Assembly (NCBI RefSeq): GCF_044324875.1
Contig: NZ_CP172187.1
Source of the DNA: Escherichia coli
GTDB lineage: Bacteria > Pseudomonadota > Gammaproteobacteria > Enterobacterales > Enterobacteriaceae
DNA: 64,000 bases
Reading direction: 5' to 3' (one strand)
Below, one piece after another: positions 7,296 through 63,154 of this stretch; the stretch's first letter is position 1, and every line of letters starts with the position of its first letter. The notes beneath the pieces are model-generated. The model made no database searches and was not told where the DNA came from. It saw nothing but the letters and a program-made list of their open reading frames with translations. The translations under genes were made by a program, and so were the position numbers.

Positions 7296-7895
7296 ATCTG
7301 CTGCTCTGATTCTGACTACTGCAGTGTTGTTCTGTCTGCCGGGCGCACCTTCGGCTCCCGGCTGCCTGGCGGCATCCGGTCGTCAGGCCCGACTCCGACA
7401 GGCAGCTGCTGGCGCACCTGCCAGTCTCCGCCGAACCCGCTGGCGCGGCTTCGGGCTGCCGCTACGGTCCGATGCGTGAAAACCCCGGGCTTGCAGCGAC
7501 CGTTCTGGTCGCGCCGCCTCTGTCGCGCCGTGGCCTGCGCTCCAGGCATCCCGGCAAAAAGACGCCGGGATGTAAGGCGCAACGCCGTTTCGCAAACCGC
7601 GCTTCACGTCGTTGCTGCGGGTCCCTGCTCATTGCCTGCCGGGTGCCACACACCCGTATGAGTCCCTGTCGCCGGGGGCATAGACAGCCACAACCTGCCG
7701 CACTGACTGTCCAGGGTAAATGAACAGCCCACAAAATTTTTTACCCAAAACCCGGTAAAAAATTTTGCGTTCTGCCCAGGACAGGTGCGTCAGGCCGTGG
7801 CAGTGATGCCCCTTGCGGCGAAGGTTCTCAAACGGGTGAAGTTCATACCACAGGGAATACAGCAGCAGGTTCCCGCGAAACGTCAAAACCGCGGC
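7296..7895. repeat. Leading-region repeat family B, copy 1 (~600 bp, GC-rich); candidate Frpo/ssi-like single-strand promoter
   Basis: Shares ...CTGATTCTGACTACTGCAGTGTTGTTCTGTCTGCCGGGCGCACCTTCGGCTCCCGGCTGCC... through ...CGCGGCTCCCGAAACTCAAC with copies at 10651-11280 and 18720-19340. Confidence 0.8.
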
Positions 7896-8148
7896 TCCCG
7901 AAACTCAACGGGTGATGTTCTTTAAAAATCAGGATTTATTTCAGGCTCCGGCAATACGCATTTATGTGTTCTGTCAGTCATCCGGCTGGCAGGTAATGAG
8001 AACGCAGGAACAGAAGGAGGAAAACACCGGAGAACGTCAGACGCAGATATGAAAAAAGCAGGCCGGGGAGGACCTGCTTAATCCACACCGCAAAAACTGT
8101 TCGAGCAGTTTCTGCGGTTCCATTCAACAGTCATAAGGAGTTTCATTT

Positions 8149-10581: not shown

Positions 10582-10647
10582 CTGCTACTGCTACTGCTAC
10601 TGCTACTGCTACTGCTACTGCTACTGCTACTGCTACTGCTACTGCTC
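10582..10647. repeat. Hexanucleotide tandem repeat (CTGCTA)x11
   Basis: Eleven perfect units counted directly at the 5' edge of repeat B copy 2; the equivalent position in copies 1 and 3 is not expanded. Confidence 0.9.
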
Positions 10648-10650
10648 TTC

Positions 10651-11280
10651 TTTTTCCTGCTGCTCTGATTCTGACTACTGCAGTGTTGTTCTGTCTGCCG
10701 GGCGCACCTTCGGCTCCCGGCTGCCTGGCGGCATCCGGTCGTCAGGCCCGACTCCGACAGGCAGCTGCTGGCGCACCTGCCAGTCTCCGCCGAACCCGCT
10801 GGCGCGGTTTCGGGCTGCCGCTACGGTCCGATGCGTGAAAACCCGGCTTGCAGCGACCGTTCCGGTCGCGCCGCCCCTGTCGCGCCGTGACCTGCGCTCC
10901 AGGCATCCCGGCAAAAAGACGCCGGGATGTAAGGCGCAACGCCGTTTCGCAAACCGCGCTTCACGTCGTTGCGGCGGGTCCCTGCCCGTTGTTGTGTCCG
11001 GTGCCATTCACCTGTTTAAGCCCCTGTCGCCGGGGGCTGATACAGCCACAACCTGCCGCACTGACTGTCCAGGGTAAATGAACAGCCCACAAAATTTTTT
11101 ACCCAAAACCCGGTAAAAAATTTTGCGTTCTGCCCAGGACAGGTGCGTCAGGCCGTGGCAGTGATGCCCCATGCGGCGAAGGTTCTCAAACAGGTGATGG
11201 TGAATACCGGAGGGAACAAAGAGCAGGTCCCCGCAAAACGTCAAAACCGCGGCTCCCGAAACTCAACAGATGATGGGGGC
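10651..11280. repeat. Leading-region repeat family B, copy 2, directly upstream of ssb
   Basis: Direct sequence identity with copies 1 and 3; the 3' end ...CGAAACTCAACAGATGATGGGGGCTGAAAAC is shared exactly with copy 3. Confidence 0.8.
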
Positions 11281-11308
11281 TGAAAACATCAACAGAAGGA
11301 GACACATC

Positions 11309-11347
11309 ATGGCAGTTCGTGGCATTAACAAGGTCATTCTTGTCGGT
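11309..11347 (+). CDS. ssb: Plasmid single-stranded DNA-binding protein, exon 1 (codons 1-13, MAVRGINKVILVG)
   Basis: ATG with RBS AAGGAG; the 13 codons are the canonical SSB N-terminus; the reading frame is interrupted by GTGCG at 11348. Confidence 0.8.
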
Positions 11348-11960
11348 GTGCGCCGTTGAAGCGCGGTGTTTTATGGAGTGTTGCCTGAAAAGCAACATGG
11401 CTTAGTGGTATAGCCATTGCATACTGTGGTTAGCCTTGCTTGGTAACAGGCTCGGAGATCCTGAAAAGGAGAGGTGAACATAGCATCCACAGAAAAGGGT
11501 GGTGAATATGGAAATCGTTATAAGTATCACCATTCAATGCAAGATGTATATGGATAAACTGGGTTTGTTGAAGTCGAGATCTATGTGGGAAACAGGAAAC
11601 CAATAACGCAGAACGATTGAAGCGTTATTCCCGTACTAGCACAAGAAATCCGTCCGACGTTGATTGTGACCACTCTAACGGGCCAGCTATTGATGAAATA
11701 GTTAAACGATCGAAAGACATCCTAAGTACATCGCATCTCCACACCGTGAAACTACGGGACTACCTAAACTGGATTTATACCCAGCATGGTAGCGGAGTCT
11801 CCATAGTACTCAAGGTCGGCCTGTAATGGGTTCCGGCAGTCCGCATTATACGGAAGCAGCAAAGGTATAAATCAACCGGAAGGAAGATGAAAGCCTCACA
11901 GTGCTGCGGGGAAGGGAGACAGTTGTTAGATACATCAATCTCTAAGAGGAGGGTTAGCCA

Positions 11961-13862
11961 ATGCTGCCTGATGAACTTGAGAAAAGATTAGATGGAATTG
12001 AGGATGCTTCAAAAAAAGGGTATCCAGTACGTAATCTATACAAAATTGCGTGTGAGCCCGGACTGTGGCTGCAAGCCTACGTGAATATACGGGCCAATGC
12101 AGGTGCACTGACTCAAGGTGTATCAACAGATACCATTGATGGCTTTTCTATCGAAAGAGCAGAGAAGCTGGCAAAAACATTGCGGAGTAGAGAATACGTA
12201 GCGAAACCTGTACGCAGAGTTCAGATCCCAAAAAAGGACGGAAAAACCAGACCGCTGGGGATTCCAGGTGGAGACGATAAACTGGCGCAAGAAGTAGCAA
12301 GAATTATTCTGGAAAGGGTTTATGAACCAGTATTCTCTGAACACTCTCATGGATTCAGACCAAAACGTTCGTGTGAAACTGCGCTCAGATCTATTCGTCC
12401 AGTCTGGAACGGAGTTAAATGGATCGTGGATGTTGATATCAAAGGTTTCTTTGACAATATCCCCCACAAACTATTGCTGAATACACTGGCAGAGAAAATT
12501 AAGGATAAGAATTTCCTGAAATTAATCGAACAGTGGCTGAAGGCAGGATATGTGGACAATTGGAAATACCATCGCTCATATTCTGGCACGCCACAAGGTG
12601 GGATAATTTCTCCCTTACTGGCAAATATATACCTCGACAAACTGGACCGTTTTGTAGAACAGAATTTAATTCCTGCATATACAAGCGGTACAAAACGAAG
12701 AGCGAATCCAGATATGAACAGGCTGGCCCATAAGATTCATAAACTACGAAAGAAAGTAGACGGTATGGCAACTGATTCTGAATCAGAAAAAGAAGCCATA
12801 AAGAAAGAAATTGAACGACTGCTTGAAGAAAAACGTTCTATACCATCTCAGGTCATGAACGATCCAAACTTCAGGCGTATGTACTATGTTCGATATGCTG
12901 ATGACTTCGTAATCGGTGTCATCGGCTCGAAGAAAGATGCTGAACATATATCAAGACAGGTCAGAAACTTTATTACTACTTCACTGGGATTGGAAGTTAA
13001 TGAAGCAAAGACCAGGATCCGCCATATCTCAGAAGGAGTTAATTTTTTAGGCTATGAAATCAGACAGGCAGATGCAAAGAAATTGCTGAAGCAGAAAATG
13101 CAAGGGCGGCACGCTCTCCGGAGATCCACCACAGGAATTGTGCAGCTCTTCGTTCCTGACAATATAGCCGCTAAATTTTGTCACCAAAAGAAATATGGCT
13201 GTTATGAGAATGTGAAGGCTGTACATCGTTCAAGTCTACAAAATCTCAGTGAAGCTGAAATTGTTCTGACTTTCAACGCGGAAATGCGCGGATTGGCGAA
13301 CTACTACAGTCTGGCGCTGGACATGAAATATAAATTATCAAAATTATATTTCATATGGCAAATAAGCCTTTTTAAGACCCTGGCGAATAAACGACGTAGT
13401 TCAGTGAATAAAGTCGCCAAATCGCTACGGCAAAATAATGGAGATCTGGCTATTACCGTTCAGGCCAAAAATGGATCCCGAAAGATTGAGGTTTTCAAAC
13501 TCAAACATGTCAATCGCAACCGAACAACGATTGTCGATACGGAACCGAGAACCGCACATATCACAACCCGCACAACAGAGATCATGCGTCGATTAGGGGC
13601 AAGGATCTGCGAGTATTGTGCGAAGACTGGGCGCTGCGAAGTACATCATGTCAGAAAGCTAAAAGACCTGAAGAAAGGTCGTAAGGCCGGATATAAACCC
13701 AGCTTGTGGCAACTAATGATGATCGCACGCCGCCGGAAAACGATGATTTTGTGCGCAAGTTGCCACGACAAGTTACATAGCGGAAAACTACCCGATTTGA
13801 GACAGGAAAAGGGAAGAATACTCCTGCAACCACCTGTCTCAAGCGGGGATTCTGCTAAATGA
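11961..13862 (+). CDS. Group II intron-encoded protein: reverse transcriptase, maturase (X) and HNH endonuclease domains
   Basis: 633 aa with RT motifs (LGIPGGDDKLAQE, SHGFRPKRSCETAL, FFDNIPH, GTPQGGIISPLLANIYL, YVRYADDFVIGV) and a C-terminal Cys/His HNH-like cluster (CEYCAKTGRCEVHHV...CASCHDKLH). Confidence 0.9.
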   Translation: MLPDELEKRLDGIEDASKKGYPVRNLYKIACEPGLWLQAYVNIRANAGALTQGVSTDTIDGFSIERAEKLAKTLRSREYVAKPVRRVQIPKKDGKTRPLGIPGGDDKLAQEVARIILERVYEPVFSEHSHGFRPKRSCETALRSIRPVWNGVKWIVDVDIKGFFDNIPHKLLLNTLAEKIKDKNFLKLIEQWLKAGYVDNWKYHRSYSGTPQGGIISPLLANIYLDKLDRFVEQNLIPAYTSGTKRRANPDMNRLAHKIHKLRKKVDGMATDSESEKEAIKKEIERLLEEKRSIPSQVMNDPNFRRMYYVRYADDFVIGVIGSKKDAEHISRQVRNFITTSLGLEVNEAKTRIRHISEGVNFLGYEIRQADAKKLLKQKMQGRHALRRSTTGIVQLFVPDNIAAKFCHQKKYGCYENVKAVHRSSLQNLSEAEIVLTFNAEMRGLANYYSLALDMKYKLSKLYFIWQISLFKTLANKRRSSVNKVAKSLRQNNGDLAITVQAKNGSRKIEVFKLKHVNRNRTTIVDTEPRTAHITTRTTEIMRRLGARICEYCAKTGRCEVHHVRKLKDLKKGRKAGYKPSLWQLMMIARRRKTMILCASCHDKLHSGKLPDLRQEKGRILLQPPVSSGDSAK

Positions 13863-13888
13863 GTTTATCCCCAATAAGCTAGCAATGG

Positions 13889-13926
13889 AGAGCCGTATGC
13901 ACTGAAAGGTGCACGTACGGTTCGGA
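13889..13926 (+). ncRNA. Group II intron domain V (catalytic hairpin)
   Basis: Matches the conserved domain V consensus as I recall it (GAGCCGUAUGC...GCACGUACGGUUC), about 80 nt from the 3' splice site. Confidence 0.7.
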
Positions 13927-14008
13927 GGGGGGGTAACGGTGATCTAACTCAAGATAAGCAGGACATATTCGCCATTTATCTTGAAAGACCACACGTACCC
14001 TACCCTAC

Positions 14009-14497
14009 CGTCTGGGAAAAGATCCGGAAGTCCGTTACATCCCAAACGGGGGCGCAGTGGCAAACCTGCAGGTGGCCACGTCAGAAAGCTGGCGCGACAA
14101 ACAGACGGGGGAGATACGGGAGCAGACAGAATGGCATCGCGTGGTGCTGTTCGGCAAGCTCGCGGAAGTGGCTGGTGAGTATCTGCGCAAGGGCGCGCAG
14201 GTCTACATCGAAGGTCAGCTTCGCACCCGTAGCTGGGAGGATAACGGTATCACCCGTTACGTCACCGAAATTCTTGTTAAGACCACGGGCACCATGCAGA
14301 TGCTGGGACGTGCCGCAGGTACTCAGACTCAGCCGGAAGAGGCGCAACAGTTCAGCGGTCAGCCTCAGCCGGAATCACAGCCGGAACCGAAAAAAGGAGG
14401 CGCGAAAACGAAAGGCCGTGGACGTAAGGCCGCGCAGCCGGAGCCTCAGCAGCCGTCTGAACCCGCGTATGACTTCGATGACGACATTCCGTTCTAA
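14009..14497 (+). CDS. ssb: Plasmid single-stranded DNA-binding protein, exon 2
   Basis: In frame with ORF 14057..14497 ([19 protein letters not shown]...DDDIPF, acidic SSB tail); upstream in-frame codons [17 protein letters not shown] continue the SSB OB-fold. Confidence 0.8.
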
Positions 14498-14849: not shown

Positions 14850-16807
14850 ATGTCAGTTACAGAGTCTAAGACAAAAACGGAGCGTAAATCCAGCCGTAAA
14901 CCTGCAAAAACGCAGGAAACTGCACTGTCTGCCCTGCTGGCGCAGACGGAGGAAGTGAGCGTGCCGCTGGATTCACTGATTAAATCACCGCTGAATGTGC
15001 GCACGGTGCCGTATTCTGCGGAGTCCGTCAGTGAACTGGCTGATTCCATTAAGGGAGTCGGCCTGCTGCAGAATCTGGTTGTTCATGCCCTGCCAGGTGA
15101 CCGTTACGGTGTCGCCGCAGGTGGTCGCCGACTGGCAGCACTCAACATGCTGGCAGAGCGTGACATCATTCAGGCTGACTGGCCTGTCCGCGTGAAAATT
15201 ATTCCGCAGGAGCTGGCGACGGCTGCATCGATGACCGAGAACGGTCATCGTCGGGATATGCACCCTGCCGAACAGATTGCCGGATTCCGCGCAATGGCGC
15301 AGGAAGGCAAAACACCTGCGCAAATCGGTGATTTGCTGGGCTATTCACCCCGCCATGTCCAGCGAATGCTGAAACTGGCTGACCTTGCGCCTGTCATCCT
15401 CGATGCGCTGGCAGAAGACCGCATCACCACCGAACACTGTCAGGCGCTGGCGCTGGAGAACGACACCGCGCGTCAGGTGCAGGTGTTTGAAGCCGCTGCC
15501 AGTCAGGATGGGGTGGAAAACCGGATGTGCGGGTTATCCGCAACCTGATTACGGAAAGTGAAGTGGCGGTGAAGGACAACACTAAATTTCGCTTTGTGGG
15601 GGCTGATGCTTTCTCGCCTGACGAACTGCGCACCGATTTGTTCAGCGATGACGGGGACGGTTATGTCGACCGCGTGGCGCTCGATGCCGCCCTGCTGGAA
15701 AAACTCCAGGTTGTTGCAGAGTCCCTTCGGGAAGCAGAAGGCTGGGAATGGTGCGCCGGGCGCATGGAGCCAGTCGGTGAGTGCCGTGAGGATGCCGGAA
15801 CATACCGCTGTCTGCCGGAGCCGGAAGCGGTGCTGACGGAGGCGGAAGAAGAACGCCTGAACGAACTGATGACGCGTTACGACGCGCTGGAAAACCAGTG
15901 TGAGGAATCCGACCTGCTGGAAGCAGAAATGAAGCTGATGCGCTGCATGGCGAAGGTCAGAGCGTGGACGCCGGAGATACGTGCCGGAAGCGGTGTGGTG
16001 GTGTCCTGGCGTTATGGCAACGTATGTGTCCAGCGTGGTGTGCAGTTGCGCAGTGAAGATGACGCGACTGACGACGCTGACCGCACGGAACAGGTGCAGG
16101 AGAAAGCGTCAGTGGAGGAAATCAGTCTGCCACTGCTGACGAAAATGTCTTCCGAACGCACGCTGGCAGTCCAGGCGGCACTGATGCAGCAACCGGACAA
16201 ATCCCTGACACTGCTGGCATGGACGCTCTGCCTGAATGTGTTTGGCAGCGGAGCGTACAGTAAACCAGCACAAATCAGCCTGGAATGTAAACATTATTCG
16301 CTGACCAGCGATGCGCCGTCAGGGAAGGAAGGTGCCGCATTCATGGCGCTGATGGCAGAAAAAGCCCGTCTTGCGGCCCTGTTACCGGAGGGATGGTCAC
16401 GGGACATGACGACATTCCTTTCACTCAGTCAGGAGGTGCTGTTATCCCTGCTCAGTTTCTGCACCGCGTGCAGCATCCACGGCGTTCAGACCCGCGAGTG
16501 TGGTCACACGTCACGCAGCCCGCTGGACACGCTGGAGAGCGCCATCGGTTTTCACATGCGCGACTGGTGGCAGCCGACAAAAGCAAACTTCTTCGGACAC
16601 CTGAAAAAGCCGCAGATTATCGCAGCCCTGAATGAGGCAGGACTGTCCGGTGCCGCACGGGACGCGGAGAAGATGAAGAAAGGCGATGCGGCTGAACATG
16701 CAGAGTTCCATATGAAAGACAACCGCTGGGTGCCTGGCTGGATGTGTGCACCACGTCCACAGACGGATACCACTGAACGCACTGATAACCTGGCTGATGC
16801 CGCCTGA
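14850..16807 (+). CDS. ParB-like nuclease-domain protein, apparently split by a frameshift into 14850..15548 and 15527..16807
   Basis: N-terminal part has ParB/Srx-like motifs (LQNLVVHALPGDRYGVAAGGRRLAALN, HTH-like region); the second ORF continues in another frame with a 22-nt overlap. Combined length (~650 aa) is that of intact homologues as I recall them. Confidence 0.6.
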
Positions 16808-18012: not shown

Positions 18013-18199
18013 TGCGGCAACAATCACACGGATTTCCCGTGAACGGTCTGAATGAGCGGATTATTTTCAGGGAAAGTGAGTGTGGTCAGCGTGCAGGTAT
18101 ATGGGCTATGATGTGCCCGGCGCTTGAGGCTTTCTGCCTCATGACGTGAAGGTGGTTTGTTGCCGTGTTGTGTGGCAGAAAGAAGATAGCCCCGTAGTA

Positions 18200-18270
18200 A
18201 GTTAATTTTCATTAACCACCACGAGGCATCCCTATGTCTAGTCCACATCAGGATAGCCTCTTACCGCGCT
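18200..18270 (-). ncRNA. sok: Sok-type antisense RNA of the hok/mok/sok locus; approximate position
   Basis: Placed by analogy with type I hok/sok systems, where the antisense overlaps the mok start region; exact ends not determinable by eye. Confidence 0.35.
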
Positions 18271-18446
18271 TTGCGCAAGGAGAAGAAGGCCATGAAACTA
18301 CCACGAAGTTCCCTTGTCTGGTGTGTGTTGATCGTGTGTCTCACACTGTTGATATTCACTTATCTGACACGAAAATCGCTGTGCGAGATTCGTTACAGAG
18401 ACGGACACAGGGAGGTGGCGGCTTTCATGGCTTACGAATCCGGTAA
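18234..18446 (+). CDS. mok: Mok/FlmC-like overlapping reading frame that couples hok translation
   Basis: 70-aa ORF overlapping hok in a different frame. Confidence 0.55.
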
Positions 18447-18719: not shown

Positions 18720-19340
18720 TCCTGCTCTGATTCTGACTACTGCAGTGTTGTCCTGTCTGCCGGCGCACCTTCGGCTCCCGGCTGCCTGGCGGCATCCGGT
18801 CGTCAGGCCCGACTCCGACAGGCAGCTGCTGGCGCACCTGCCAGTCTCCGCCGAACCCGCTGGCGCGGTTTCGGGCTGTCGCTACGGTCCGATGCGTGAA
18901 AACCCCGGGCTTGCAGCGACCGTTCCGGTCGCGCCGCCTCTGTCGCGCCGTGGCCTGCGCTCCTGGCATCCCGGCAAAAAGACGCCGGGATGTAAGGCGC
19001 AACGCCGTTTCGCAAACCGCGCTTCACGTCGTTGCTGCGGGTCCCTGCCCGTTGTTGTGTCCGGTGCCATTCACCTGTTTAAGCCCCTGTCGCCGGGGGC
19101 TGATACAGCCACAACCTGCCGCACTGACTGTCCAGGGTAAATGAACAGCCCACAAAATTTTTTACCCAAAACCCGGTAAAAAATTTTGCGTTCTGCCCAG
19201 GACAGGTGCGTCAGGCCGTGGCAGTGATGCCCCATGCGGCGAAGGTTCTCAAACAGGTGATGGTGAATACCGGAGGGAACAAAGAGCAGGTCCCCGCAAA
19301 ACGTCAAAACCGCGGCTCCCGAAACTCAACAGATGATGGG
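18720..19340. repeat. Leading-region repeat family B, copy 3
   Basis: Direct identity with copies 1 and 2; ends about 30 nt upstream of the ATG at 19371. Confidence 0.8.
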
Positions 19341-19370
19341 GGCTGAAAACCAGAGAGAGGAGAAAGCTGG

Positions 19371-49472: not shown

Positions 49473-51119
49473 TCAGTGGTAGTAGCCCGGACCACGCAGG
49501 TTTTCATGCTCTGAAGCATATGCCGGATGTTGTTCGCCCTGGCGGGATAATGGAAGCTCCAGGTTCTCCCGATGGTGACGCAGCAGATTGTCGATAAAGC
49601 GTCTGTCAGGGGCGTTATAGTGCAGGGCAACGTAACAGGCCTTTTCCAGCCGTTCCGGGCCGTATTTTTTCTGAAGTGCCAGCAGCCCCAGAACTGCACG
49701 ATAAGCCAGTTCCGGATGGGGTTTTGCCTTCAGCATGGATTCAACCACCCGGCCTGTGGACGGGCCCGTACGTTTTCCCTGCTCGATCAGGCGTTCCGGT
49801 GTCCATGTCCCGTGCTGCCGGTGGCGCTCTGGCATGTGAAGCGGATTGGTTGTGTGTTTATATTCATGTGTGCTGCGCGGATGTTGCGCCACACACTGCC
49901 CCTTGTGCCAGAGCTGTACCACCGACTGCCCCGCCTTCAGTGACAGACGCTGACCGACCAGTTCGTGTGGAACGGAGTACCAGTGACGGGCATATTCAAC
50001 GTGGTAGTCAGGGCCAACCTTCACAGCTTTGTATTCCGTGTATTCATAAGGTGCCAGAGGCAGCGGAGAGAGTGCTGGCGCATCCAGTATGCGGAAGCGT
50101 TCTGCACGGGTTTGATTGCCGTACCCCTTCATTGGCCGGTTATTCATGTCTGTCAGTAACTCCCTAAGGCGCGCATTCAGCGCCCTGAGCGTGTGGAAGG
50201 TTTCATTACGGATGCGGGCAAGAAGCCATCGTTCAACGATGAGGACGCCGTTTTCTGCTTTTGGTTTATCTTTAGGTTTGCGTGGTCGGGCCGGGATGAT
50301 AACCGTGCCATAGTGCTCAGCCAGTGCCTGATAACTGTCGTTGATGACAGGCTCATATCGATCGGCCTTTTTCACTGCGCTTCTGAGGTTATCGGGGATG
50401 AGCAGCTTCGGTACGCCGCCCAGGAAGGTCAGGCAACGGCTGTGGGCATTTAACCATGACATCATGTCCTGACCTTCGCACGCTTCAACGTAGGTATAGT
50501 TGGACGCCCCCATTACGGCCACGAAGATTGCCACGCGGCGTATCTCACCGGTGTCCGGATTAATAACAGGAACCGTAGGACCACAGAAGTCGATAAAAAG
50601 CTTTTCGCCGGCACGATGCTCCTGGCGCATGGAGAGACGTCGCGTTTTTTTCCACTCCCGGTAGCAACGGCAGAAGTGCGAGTATCCCATCGCTTTGTTA
50701 CCCGCCTGTGCCTTGTATTCCATCCACAACAGTTGCCGCGTCACACCTGGTTTTCTCATTTCCGTATCGAAGTACAACATGTCAGGCATTACAAGCTCTG
50801 ATGCAAAGGTGTCTTTGGGCGGAAAAATGAGTTTCTCCAGCGTGTCATGGGATATATCAGCAGGTAATGGCCATGACAGAGAAGAGGCTTTGAAGCGGGC
50901 AAGAACCTCAAAAACGGTTGAGGCGCTGATGTGTAACGTCAGTCCGATACAACGGTTAGTCAGCTTCTTGTCGAACTTGAGCTGAAGGATCTTAAAACAG
51001 GTTTCCATAGTGCTCCTGGATTTTCTCTTTCTGGACATTGACGTCTCCACTGGTTTAAACACGGCAATGGAGACTGTGGTGAAAAGAGTTAATTCCCGGA
51101 GTGACTGGCAGGATGCCAA
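49473..51119 (-). CDS. istA: IstA-like transposase (start uncertain)
   Basis: 548-aa ORF whose 3' end overlaps istB; HTH-like N-terminus; two-gene arrangement diagnostic of the IS21 family. Confidence 0.75.
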   Translation of the reverse strand: MASCQSLRELTLFTTVSIAVFKPVETSMSRKRKSRSTMETCFKILQLKFDKKLTNRCIGLTLHISASTVFEVLARFKASSLSWPLPADISHDTLEKLIFPPKDTFASELVMPDMLYFDTEMRKPGVTRQLLWMEYKAQAGNKAMGYSHFCRCYREWKKTRRLSMRQEHRAGEKLFIDFCGPTVPVINPDTGEIRRVAIFVAVMGASNYTYVEACEGQDMMSWLNAHSRCLTFLGGVPKLLIPDNLRSAVKKADRYEPVINDSYQALAEHYGTVIIPARPRKPKDKPKAENGVLIVERWLLARIRNETFHTLRALNARLRELLTDMNNRPMKGYGNQTRAERFRILDAPALSPLPLAPYEYTEYKAVKVGPDYHVEYARHWYSVPHELVGQRLSLKAGQSVVQLWHKGQCVAQHPRSTHEYKHTTNPLHMPERHRQHGTWTPERLIEQGKRTGPSTGRVVESMLKAKPHPELAYRAVLGLLALQKKYGPERLEKACYVALHYNAPDRRFIDNLLRHHRENLELPLSRQGEQHPAYASEHENLRGPGYYH

Positions 51120-62733: not shown

Positions 62734-62947
62734 CGGATTAAAAATAGATGTAAATAAAAAGCATACTTATTGGCTGGAGTGACGCCTTCGTGCTTCGGTA
62801 GTAAAAAACGGGAAATGAAGGTAATAGTCAGCAACAGGGAATGTGGTATTATCGCGGCGGGTGTCTGAGCCTTTCTGGTTCAGGCAAGACGCAGGTACCA
62901 GAAATGCGAAGACCCCACTTGTTAATCCATTAACTCGTGAGGTCTGC

Positions 62948-63154
62948 ATGAAGTACTTGAACACTACTGATTGTAGCCTCTTCCTTGCAGAGAGGTCAAA
63001 GTTTATGACGAAATATGCCCTTATCGGGTTGCTCGCCGTGTGCGCCACGGTGTTGTGTTTTTCACTGATATTCAGGGAACGGTTATGTGAACTGAATATT
63101 CACAGGGGAAATACAGTGGTGCAGGTAACTCTGGCCTACGAAGCACGGAAGTAA
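62948..63154 (+). CDS. SrnB' leader reading frame (mok analogue)
   Basis: ATG at 62948 (MKYLNTTD...) in frame with srnB. Confidence 0.5.
   Translation: MKYLNTTDCSLFLAERSKFMTKYALIGLLAVCATVLCFSLIFRERLCELNIHRGNTVVQVTLAYEARK
63005..63154 (+). CDS. srnB: SrnB/PndA-type Hok-family toxin (49 aa)
   Basis: MTKYALIGLLAVCATVLCFSLIFRERLCELNIHRGNTVVQVTLAYEARK. Confidence 0.85.
   Translation: MTKYALIGLLAVCATVLCFSLIFRERLCELNIHRGNTVVQVTLAYEARK

Follow-up and report, generated by a model that had tools for sequence, protein, structure and literature searches.

The DNA analysed here (the window), a stretch of 64,000 nt from Escherichia coli contig NZ_CP172187.1 (RefSeq assembly GCF_044324875.1), belongs to an F-like conjugative plasmid, with Rfam matches to FinP and the traJ 5′ untranslated region at 22.3 kb, to CopA, and to two hok/sok loci. 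In the leading region of this plasmid, where ssb, a DUF905 gene, a parB-like gene, psiB, psiA and hok/sok follow one another on the + strand towards traJ, the ssb gene is split by a group II intron. The observations reported below make it highly probable that this is a functional and currently mobile Ll.LtrB-like intron of the mitochondrial-like (ML) lineage and IIA type, already catalogued as E.c.I11, and that its natural homing site is the plasmid ssb gene, between the Gly codon of NKVILVG and an Arg codon.

The split ssb gene and its intron

The ssb frame (11309 to 14497, + strand) is broken after codon 13 by a 2661-nt interruption that starts with GTGCG at 11348 and ends with AC at 14007–14008, in agreement with the group II boundaries GUGYG/AY. 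Its excision joins the two exons in frame into an SSB of 175 aa, with ..NKVILVG| at the junction and the tail DDDIPF. An earlier sequence-only reading of the locus had proposed these boundaries and the restored protein, as well as the sense orientation of the intron within ssb, and we reproduced all of them; the element possesses all six ribozyme domains, an intact intron-encoded protein (IEP), and recognisable pairings between exon-binding (EBS) and intron-binding (IBS) sites. In translation, the unspliced ssb frame meets a stop three codons inside the intron. The joined gene and the 0.5 kb before it align collinearly with the classical F plasmid, at 94% identity across 965 nt; in F, ssb is uninterrupted.

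RefSeq leaves the exons unjoined and calls a 161–165-aa 'ssb' from a CTG located 4 nt into exon 2, while in some records exon 1 is given as a pseudogene fragment (pEC958-type record, L002:6665–7150 and L002:3923–4000; same in L001 and L102–L104). Such calls are artefacts of annotation and conceal the split gene, and pipelines producing a truncated ssb plus a pseudogene fragment mislead gene-content comparisons.

The canonical domain V described in the sequence-only reading was borne out by Rfam model RF00029 (domains V–VI), which matched at 13888–14008 with 67.4 bits (gathering score 40) and stopped precisely at the 3′ boundary, 14008, given in that reading. Rfam models for D1–D4 returned no match even at E values up to 10, domains V–VI alone being matched. 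Because no Rfam model covers domains I–IV of this class, evidence for domains I–III was built from relatives: the 5′ 600 nt of 13 related introns were aligned, a consensus was derived with RNAalifold, and its columns were mapped to window coordinates, a minimum free energy fold of the single domain I sequence being uninformative. The consensus comprised 150 base pairs, 116 of them with compensatory changes. Structure modelling, whose failure had been named beforehand as a possible refutation, thus recovered domains I–VI. Within domain I, a motif resembling a GAAA-tetraloop receptor (UAUGG, 11548–11552, and CCUAAG, 11719–11724) was read from the sequence and may act as such a receptor.

The 633-aa open reading frame (ORF) is preceded by a GGAGG ribosome-binding site and carries Pfam RVT_1, Intron_maturas2 and AI2M-like HNH domains, in keeping with the reverse transcriptase (RT), maturase and HNH protein proposed earlier. 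The IEP clears the NCBIfam cut-off for group II RT/maturases (TIGR04416; 310.7 vs 300 bits), and its best match in the PDB is LtrA (5g2x_C), aligned full-length over residues 25–604 (E = 5.5e-119) with YADD as well as the Cys and His residues of HNH in register. It has the same sequence as the representative of a protein cluster with 1004 members.

Judging from the LtrA match, the HNH domain and the delta pairing, the intron is Ll.LtrB-like and of the ML lineage, IIA type; it shows the delta–delta′ pairing beside EBS1 that characterises this class, instead of the EBS3 of IIB introns. LtrA, the closest solved protein to the IEP, belongs to Ll.LtrB, the IIA intron in the relaxase gene ltrB of Lactococcus lactis. 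The two introns share their domain order, have delta directly 5′ of EBS1, and lie in sense inside a conjugation-related gene of a transmissible element. They differ in target gene and host phylum, and domain I RNA identity is only about 38% in pairwise alignment. Moreover, the relaxase is needed for transfer, whereas ssb is dispensable and its operon is probably driven by a single-strand promoter.

Distribution and recent movement of E.c.I11

The novelty accorded to this element by the sequence-only reading was overstated, as the name E.c.I11 was already in print (PMC4398462) and hundreds of GenBank records annotate the element as ltrA. The report on pEC958 of E. coli ST131 (Phan et al. 2015) gives this name to the single group II intron on that plasmid (PMC4398462); the pEC958 copy is identical to ours at 2643/2661 positions (18 differences, 99.3%) and has the same ssb junction. 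By this match, combined with the published name, we identify the window intron as E.c.I11, although the window holds the second common sequence variant rather than that of pEC958. The pEC958 report (PMC4398462) is silent on ssb, the homing site and relatives, and no description of a group II intron inside ssb was found in the literature searched.

At ≥99% identity (that is, at least 99%), the intron was present in 514 PLSDB plasmids, mostly conjugative plasmids of Escherichia, with some from Salmonella, Klebsiella and Shigella, and in 436 of 5426 complete E. coli genomes, in which it occupied 564 places on plasmids and nine on chromosomes. The junction between intron and ssb exon 2 was found in 504 of the 514 PLSDB plasmids with any intron part, and that between ssb exon 1 and intron in 434. 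Carriers span IncF (MOBF) and IncI/K (MOBP) backbones, and about 37 further copies on metagenome contigs all lie within ssb. Uninterrupted alleles, a search for which had been suggested, proved common: besides F, roughly 3700 further PLSDB plasmids carry the exon sequence without the intron, so that occupancy of the ssb site is roughly 12% in PLSDB. A split ssb is therefore present in about one plasmid in eight of this ssb family, including plasmids of the pandemic ST131 clone.

Comparison with the IncI1 plasmid pMTY11352 is instructive. The intron differs from that of the window at a single one of 2661 positions, whereas the 200 nt upstream are unrelated, four of the last 12 bases of exon 1 differ, and exon 2 is about 80% identical. 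Two intron variants, 18 differences apart, each occur on both IncF and IncI backbones, at least five IBS1 variants are occupied (plasmid records and metagenome contigs combined), and the spliced ssb frame was intact in every case examined. A near-identical intron in diverged exons means that the flanks were not co-converted, as expected for retrohoming. The near-identity of copies in diverged ssb alleles also points to recent reverse splicing and hence to an intron RNA that is excised and catalytically active. These patterns indicate recent retrohoming, and on the distribution of junctions the ssb position is best understood as the specific homing site of the intron, a point overlooked in the sequence-only reading.

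Three metagenome contigs (L119, L151, L164) have an IncI-type exon 1 that is one G short at the junction (..CGTCGG|GTGCG), which would frameshift the spliced ssb; the missing G could reflect misassembly of a homopolymer or genuine variation. In a scan of metagenomes with a domain V pattern, most matches were E.c.I11 (second variant) and the rest were unrelated introns with the same domain V. The exact 40-nt domain V of the second variant was also seen in introns on contigs L132, L150 and L153, where the translated downstream exon resembles a small hydrophobic mitochondrial membrane subunit. We take this exon, by eye, to be nad4L; if true, this would agree with the mitochondrial-like class assignment.

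Occupation of the chromosomal ssb gene was assessed with a synthetic junction made of the K-12 ssb 5′ region and the intron start, and at a threshold of at least 80% coverage none of the 5426 complete E. coli genomes carried it; none of the nine chromosomal copies, therefore, lies in the chromosomal ssb. At the chromosomal site, +1/+2 (AA vs CG), −4 and −13 differ from occupied sites, and AA at +1/+2 would break the delta–delta′ pairing. The chromosomal gene may be spared through target discrimination or through selection against insertions in an essential gene. Placement inside ssb coding sequence had been called unusual for a bacterial group II intron, and insertion in conserved coding genes has been described as rare (PMC3522654). 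The placement is less paradoxical than insertion into a housekeeping gene would be, since the plasmid ssb is dispensable (PMC9849209) and the essential chromosomal ssb is unoccupied.

Other introns also target the leading region of IncF and IncI plasmids, a few kb upstream of ssb, and are distinct from E.c.I11. One, of 2343 bp, resides in pHN7A8/FII-33 plasmids at a site upstream of the promoter repeat (PMC8765060). The LtrA-like ESBL01_04913 intron jumped between plasmids (Benz et al. 2023, PMC10104558); we considered it as direct evidence of mobility and rejected it as such, as it is a different element, located in yffB upstream of ssi3. The leading-region intron of these records is smaller than E.c.I11, encodes a 555-aa IEP, sits in another small ORF and, where seen, is on the opposite strand. 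Plasmid p_dm884b_NDM5 carries a second group II intron with a 555-aa ltrA (L103:730–2397, − strand) 3 kb upstream of its E.c.I11-bearing ssb, and this second intron may be the element of pHN7A8-type plasmids and of Benz et al. 2023.

Exon recognition and the lineage of ssb-homing introns

The EBS/IBS pairings, whose identification had been proposed as a check, emerged from covariation of intron loops with the exons across 13 related introns (Table 1). In the window, 5′-CG|UCCGAC(G) of delta and EBS1 faces exon positions +2,+1 | −1..−6(−7), in the loop of a hairpin (11640–11668) whose stem is preserved through compensatory changes. The EBS1 loop co-varies with exon positions −6 and −4, with C facing a G at −6 and U facing an A. 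Where exon 2 opens with C, in an Arg or His codon, delta is G; where it opens with AA, in an Asn codon, delta is U(U). Relatives that have been retargeted carry fitting EBS1 loops (CCGUC/GACGG, CAGGAG/CUCAUG, ACUCCG/CGGCGU), and the EBS2 loop makes perfect matches of 5–6 bp to the exon at −12..−8 in five relatives with other exons (Ktedonobacteraceae ssb, a Rad52-family gene, an integrase gene, an RT gene, and L100). When intron–exon assignments were shuffled, the observed complementarity was reached in 0 of 100,000 permutations.

Three other EBS candidates were discarded. The hairpin loop AGAACGAUUGAA (intron 263–274) could pair over the junction as EBS1 and is invariant in relatives with different exons; ACGAUCGA (359–366) lies in a conserved CGAAAG stretch beside the tetraloop-receptor motif that is common to Ll.LtrB; and ACAAGAA (294–300) is, according to the compensatory changes, one strand of the EBS1 hairpin stem.

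Table 1 Features of the intron-split ssb locus, with window coordinates
Feature	Position	Strand	Basis
Frpo2-type single-strand promoter repeat (putative), hairpin core 10974–11234	10800–11287	−	repeats, ssDNA fold, F homology
ssb exon 1, codons 1–13 (MAVRGINKVILVG)	11309–11347	+	translation, in-frame join
IBS2 (exon −12..−8)	11336–11340	+	covariation with EBS loops
IBS1 (exon −7..−1)	11341–11347	+	covariation with EBS loops
Group II intron, 2661 nt, E.c.I11 kind, predicted mitochondrial-like / IIA type	11348–14008	+	boundaries, plasmid matches
Domain I	11348–11757	+	closing helices 11353–11356/11754–11757 and 11362–11368/11742–11748; consensus fold
EBS2 (AGGAA), 10-nt loop	11594–11598	+	pairs with exon about −12..−8, or −11..−7
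Delta (CG, 11651–11652) then EBS1 (UCCGAC+G, 11653–11659)	11651–11659	+	loop of hairpin 11640–11668
Domain II	11760–11792	+	consensus helix with compensatory changes
Domain III	11797–11920	+	consensus helices with compensatory changes
IEP in domain IV: RT, X/thumb (maturase), DNA-binding, HNH endonuclease; YADD	11961–13862	+	Pfam, TIGR04416, LtrA match
Domain V, 34 nt, AGC triad, GAAA loop	13890–13923	+	RF00029 alignment
Domain VI, bulged branch-point A at 14002, 7 nt before 3′ splice site	13926–14006	+	RF00029 alignment, sequence checked
Delta′ (CG)	14009–14010	+	first bases of exon 2
ssb exon 2, codons 14–175 and stop	14009–14497	+	in-frame join; 94% identical to uninterrupted F ssb

Eight more introns, with IEPs 50–84% identical to that of E.c.I11, occupy the same ssb codon, inserted after the Gly codon of ..N(K/Q)(V/I)x(L/I)(I/V)G. 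They come from Xenorhabdus budapestensis (84%), a Ktedonobacteraceae genome (54%), and six metagenomic introns (66–75% and 50%). In-silico splicing gave an intact SSB of 132–170 aa in five of them and a frame open to the contig end in a sixth; the remaining two are seen via one junction, or via two contigs with one end each. The spliced SSBs are only 36–69% identical to the F-type protein, and several end in DIPF. Visible neighbours (topoisomerase III fragments, AcaB, a lytic transglycosylase, RadC, transposases) suggest transmissible elements.

Three relatives (49–55% identity) have other targets: one lies in the RT gene of a different intron, one in a gene of the Rad52 family and one in an integrase gene. 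A neighbour-joining tree (no support values) placed the ssb-homing introns in one clade, with the RT-gene case nested inside and the other two outside. No SSB was found near 80 more distant relatives from viral contigs (IMG/VR, ≤44% identity), and a search of genome contigs with the single IEP returned two loci only. In two cases, L098 (Rubrobacter) and L013, the 5′ exon resembles ssb but the 3′ exon is not ssb, and these were not counted as ssb insertions. On the evidence of these junctions, the lineage appears to keep one ssb codon across at least three phyla, which the sequence-only reading had overlooked; we did not find this conservation described, and it appears to be new.

Homing group I introns and inteins reside in conserved DNA-metabolism genes, where a conserved motif ensures that many genomes offer an empty site that can be recognised. 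E.c.I11 follows the same evolutionary logic and differs in its mobility, which would proceed by RNA-guided reverse splicing.

Among the relatives outside ssb, the one at 55% identity (L014:158–2711 and L015) lies inside the TPQGG(V|I)SP motif of another group II intron's RT gene, in a twintron-like arrangement, and relatives or introns with the same domain V (L099:1201 onward, L109, L154) were seen in a Rad52/Rad22-family gene and at UvrD-like helicase motifs.

Promoter context and competing explanations

The repeat that the sequence-only reading had placed upstream of the split gene as a putative single-strand promoter is real. It occurs three times in the window as direct copies of ~0.48 kb (7441–7917, 10800–11287, 18861–19350) that are 92–99% identical, each with an imperfect inverted repeat, and the second copy, a homologue of F Frpo2, lies directly upstream of ssb and is 94% identical to the corresponding region of F. 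Its core is an imperfect 260-nt palindrome, and the − strand folds as single-stranded DNA (ssDNA) at −86.7 kcal/mol compared with −47.5 ± 3.8 for shuffled sequence (z = −10.3). The orientation of the genes relative to traJ suggests that the − strand is both the transferred strand and the template of the leading genes, and the repeat would then act on this strand to drive + sense transcription into ssb. In F, promoter activity of Frpo on ssDNA has been shown, new transconjugants need Frpo2 for their burst of SsbF synthesis, and deletion of ssbF does not lower conjugation frequency and delays the first plasmid duplication (all PMC9849209). One can reasonably expect the intron and IEP to be made as soon as the plasmid enters, and splicing to be needed for SSB alone; the unspliced transcript would suffice for translating the genes further down the operon.

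Our preferred explanation, homing of a functional E.c.I11 into plasmid ssb genes, would proceed as follows. The ssb operon would be transcribed; in a cell that has just received the plasmid, the Frpo2-type hairpin of the incoming single strand would serve as promoter. The IEP, translated from domain IV, would bind the intron and promote lariat splicing at A14002, rejoining the ssb mRNA and releasing an intron RNA–protein particle. This particle would locate empty ssb sites on other plasmids by pairing EBS2 with −12..−8, EBS1 with −7..−1 and delta with +1,+2, supplemented by protein contacts. The RNA would then reverse-splice into the DNA, the HNH domain nick the opposite strand, and target-primed reverse transcription copy the intron in. 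For the timing of expression, DNA cleavage and reverse transcription, this scheme presumes that E.c.I11 follows the Ll.LtrB paradigm.

Several points weigh against this explanation. Splicing in vivo and the ligated ssb mRNA are something we infer, from recent mobility and the Ll.LtrB paradigm. Position 1 of EBS1 (U) mismatches the U at exon −1 in the window, whereas all seven positions would be paired with the IncI allele GTCGGG; every base is represented at −1 among occupied sites, and the U–U apposition together with the full pairing of the IncI allele implies that the IncF site of the window is not the best-fitting target. The claim that splicing restores SSB may be only partly true, given that Ll.LtrB is reported to lower host-gene expression even when it splices (PMC6003770). 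Finally, about 70 plasmids retain just the 3′ part of the intron, its 5′ end truncated (e.g. cut by IS1), and some carry IS1203 inside the IEP gene, from which it follows that the intron is subject to decay as well and can leave an inactive ssb at no obvious cost.

The persistence of these IS1-truncated and IS1203-disrupted copies, as well as the undiminished conjugation frequency of F lacking ssbF (PMC9849209), lends some credit to the view that the window holds a dead insertion, a degenerate and non-splicing retroelement that inactivates ssb and persists since the plasmid gene is dispensable. We nevertheless regard this as very improbable: the ORF is intact, with a sequence shared by the representative of its large cluster, the ribozyme structure is conserved, all spliced ssb ORFs examined are intact, and the near-identical copies in diverged ssb alleles on unrelated backbones require recent reverse splicing. 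The same copies bear on a proposal that the intron spread without retrohoming, from one old insertion, by vertical descent and homologous recombination of the shared leading region. Plasmid backbones are mosaic, the leading regions of IncF and IncI are homologous, and the 0.5-kb Frpo repeats could recombine. Recombination would, however, bring flanking markers along, and the exon bases next to the junctions differ around an identical intron (ATTCTTGTCGGT vs ATCCTCATCGGG, and exon 2 at +9 and +12); relatives at 50–84% identity, moreover, occupy the same site in unrelated genomes with matching EBS changes. We regard this route, too, as very improbable.

A third proposal is compatible with homing of a functional intron: E.c.I11 could have been co-opted as a regulator that delays or attenuates the Frpo2 operon, from ssb through psiB–psiA, or ties the supply of SSB to host conditions, resembling the role proposed for Ll.LtrB in its relaxase gene. 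The intron comes first in an operon whose expression is transient, mutations in this operon altered plasmid spread in an evolution experiment (PMC10104558), and precedents are reported for Ll.LtrB (PMC6003770, PMC7293003). We found no sign of benefit, though; occupancy is only about 12%, decayed copies are tolerated, and a selfish homing model accounts for all data, which leaves co-option improbable.

More tentatively, and with doubt prevailing over belief, E.c.I11 may represent an old multi-phylum intron lineage specialised on one ssb codon boundary that, in enterobacterial plasmids, exploits a single-strand promoter and so couples its spread to conjugation. If true, intron RNA and protein would appear in each new host only minutes after entry, when resident plasmids offer empty ssb sites, and SSB, and possibly the downstream SOS-inhibition genes, might be delayed or reduced. 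The conserved ssb site makes this coupling of mobility to the burst of conjugative leading-region expression directly testable.

The kind of element was already known; its interest lies in strict ssb homing, evident signs of ongoing spread among major resistance plasmids, and a site conserved in a diverged lineage. E.c.I11 is a native E. coli, endonuclease-bearing LtrA-like intron whose base-pairing code can be read from natural variants, and the native host, recent homing and readable code together make it a ready E. coli model and possibly a gene-targeting tool. Retention of the ssb site in relatives down to 50% protein identity offers a natural data set on how targets are kept or switched.

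Some further features of the leading region and of the window deserve mention. The 18-kb leading region of F (record positions 50000–68000) gave only two matches to the promoter repeat, compared with three in the window, where the extra copy precedes another gene block. The parB-like gene 3′ of ssb (14850–16807) is divided into two ORFs by a 1-nt deletion near 15496, its homologues being intact at 1959 nt; frameshifts and deletions in this gene emerged during a plasmid evolution experiment (PMC10104558 supplement), and the deletion could alternatively be a sequencing error. Shortly upstream of the promoter repeat, at 10582–10646, a perfect hexamer microsatellite (CTGCTA) × 10.8 yields long poly-Leu and poly-Ala-Thr ORFs. 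The two hok/sok-type toxin–antitoxin loci are separate, at 18118–18294 and 62859–63015 (Rfam sok, 89 and 94 bits).

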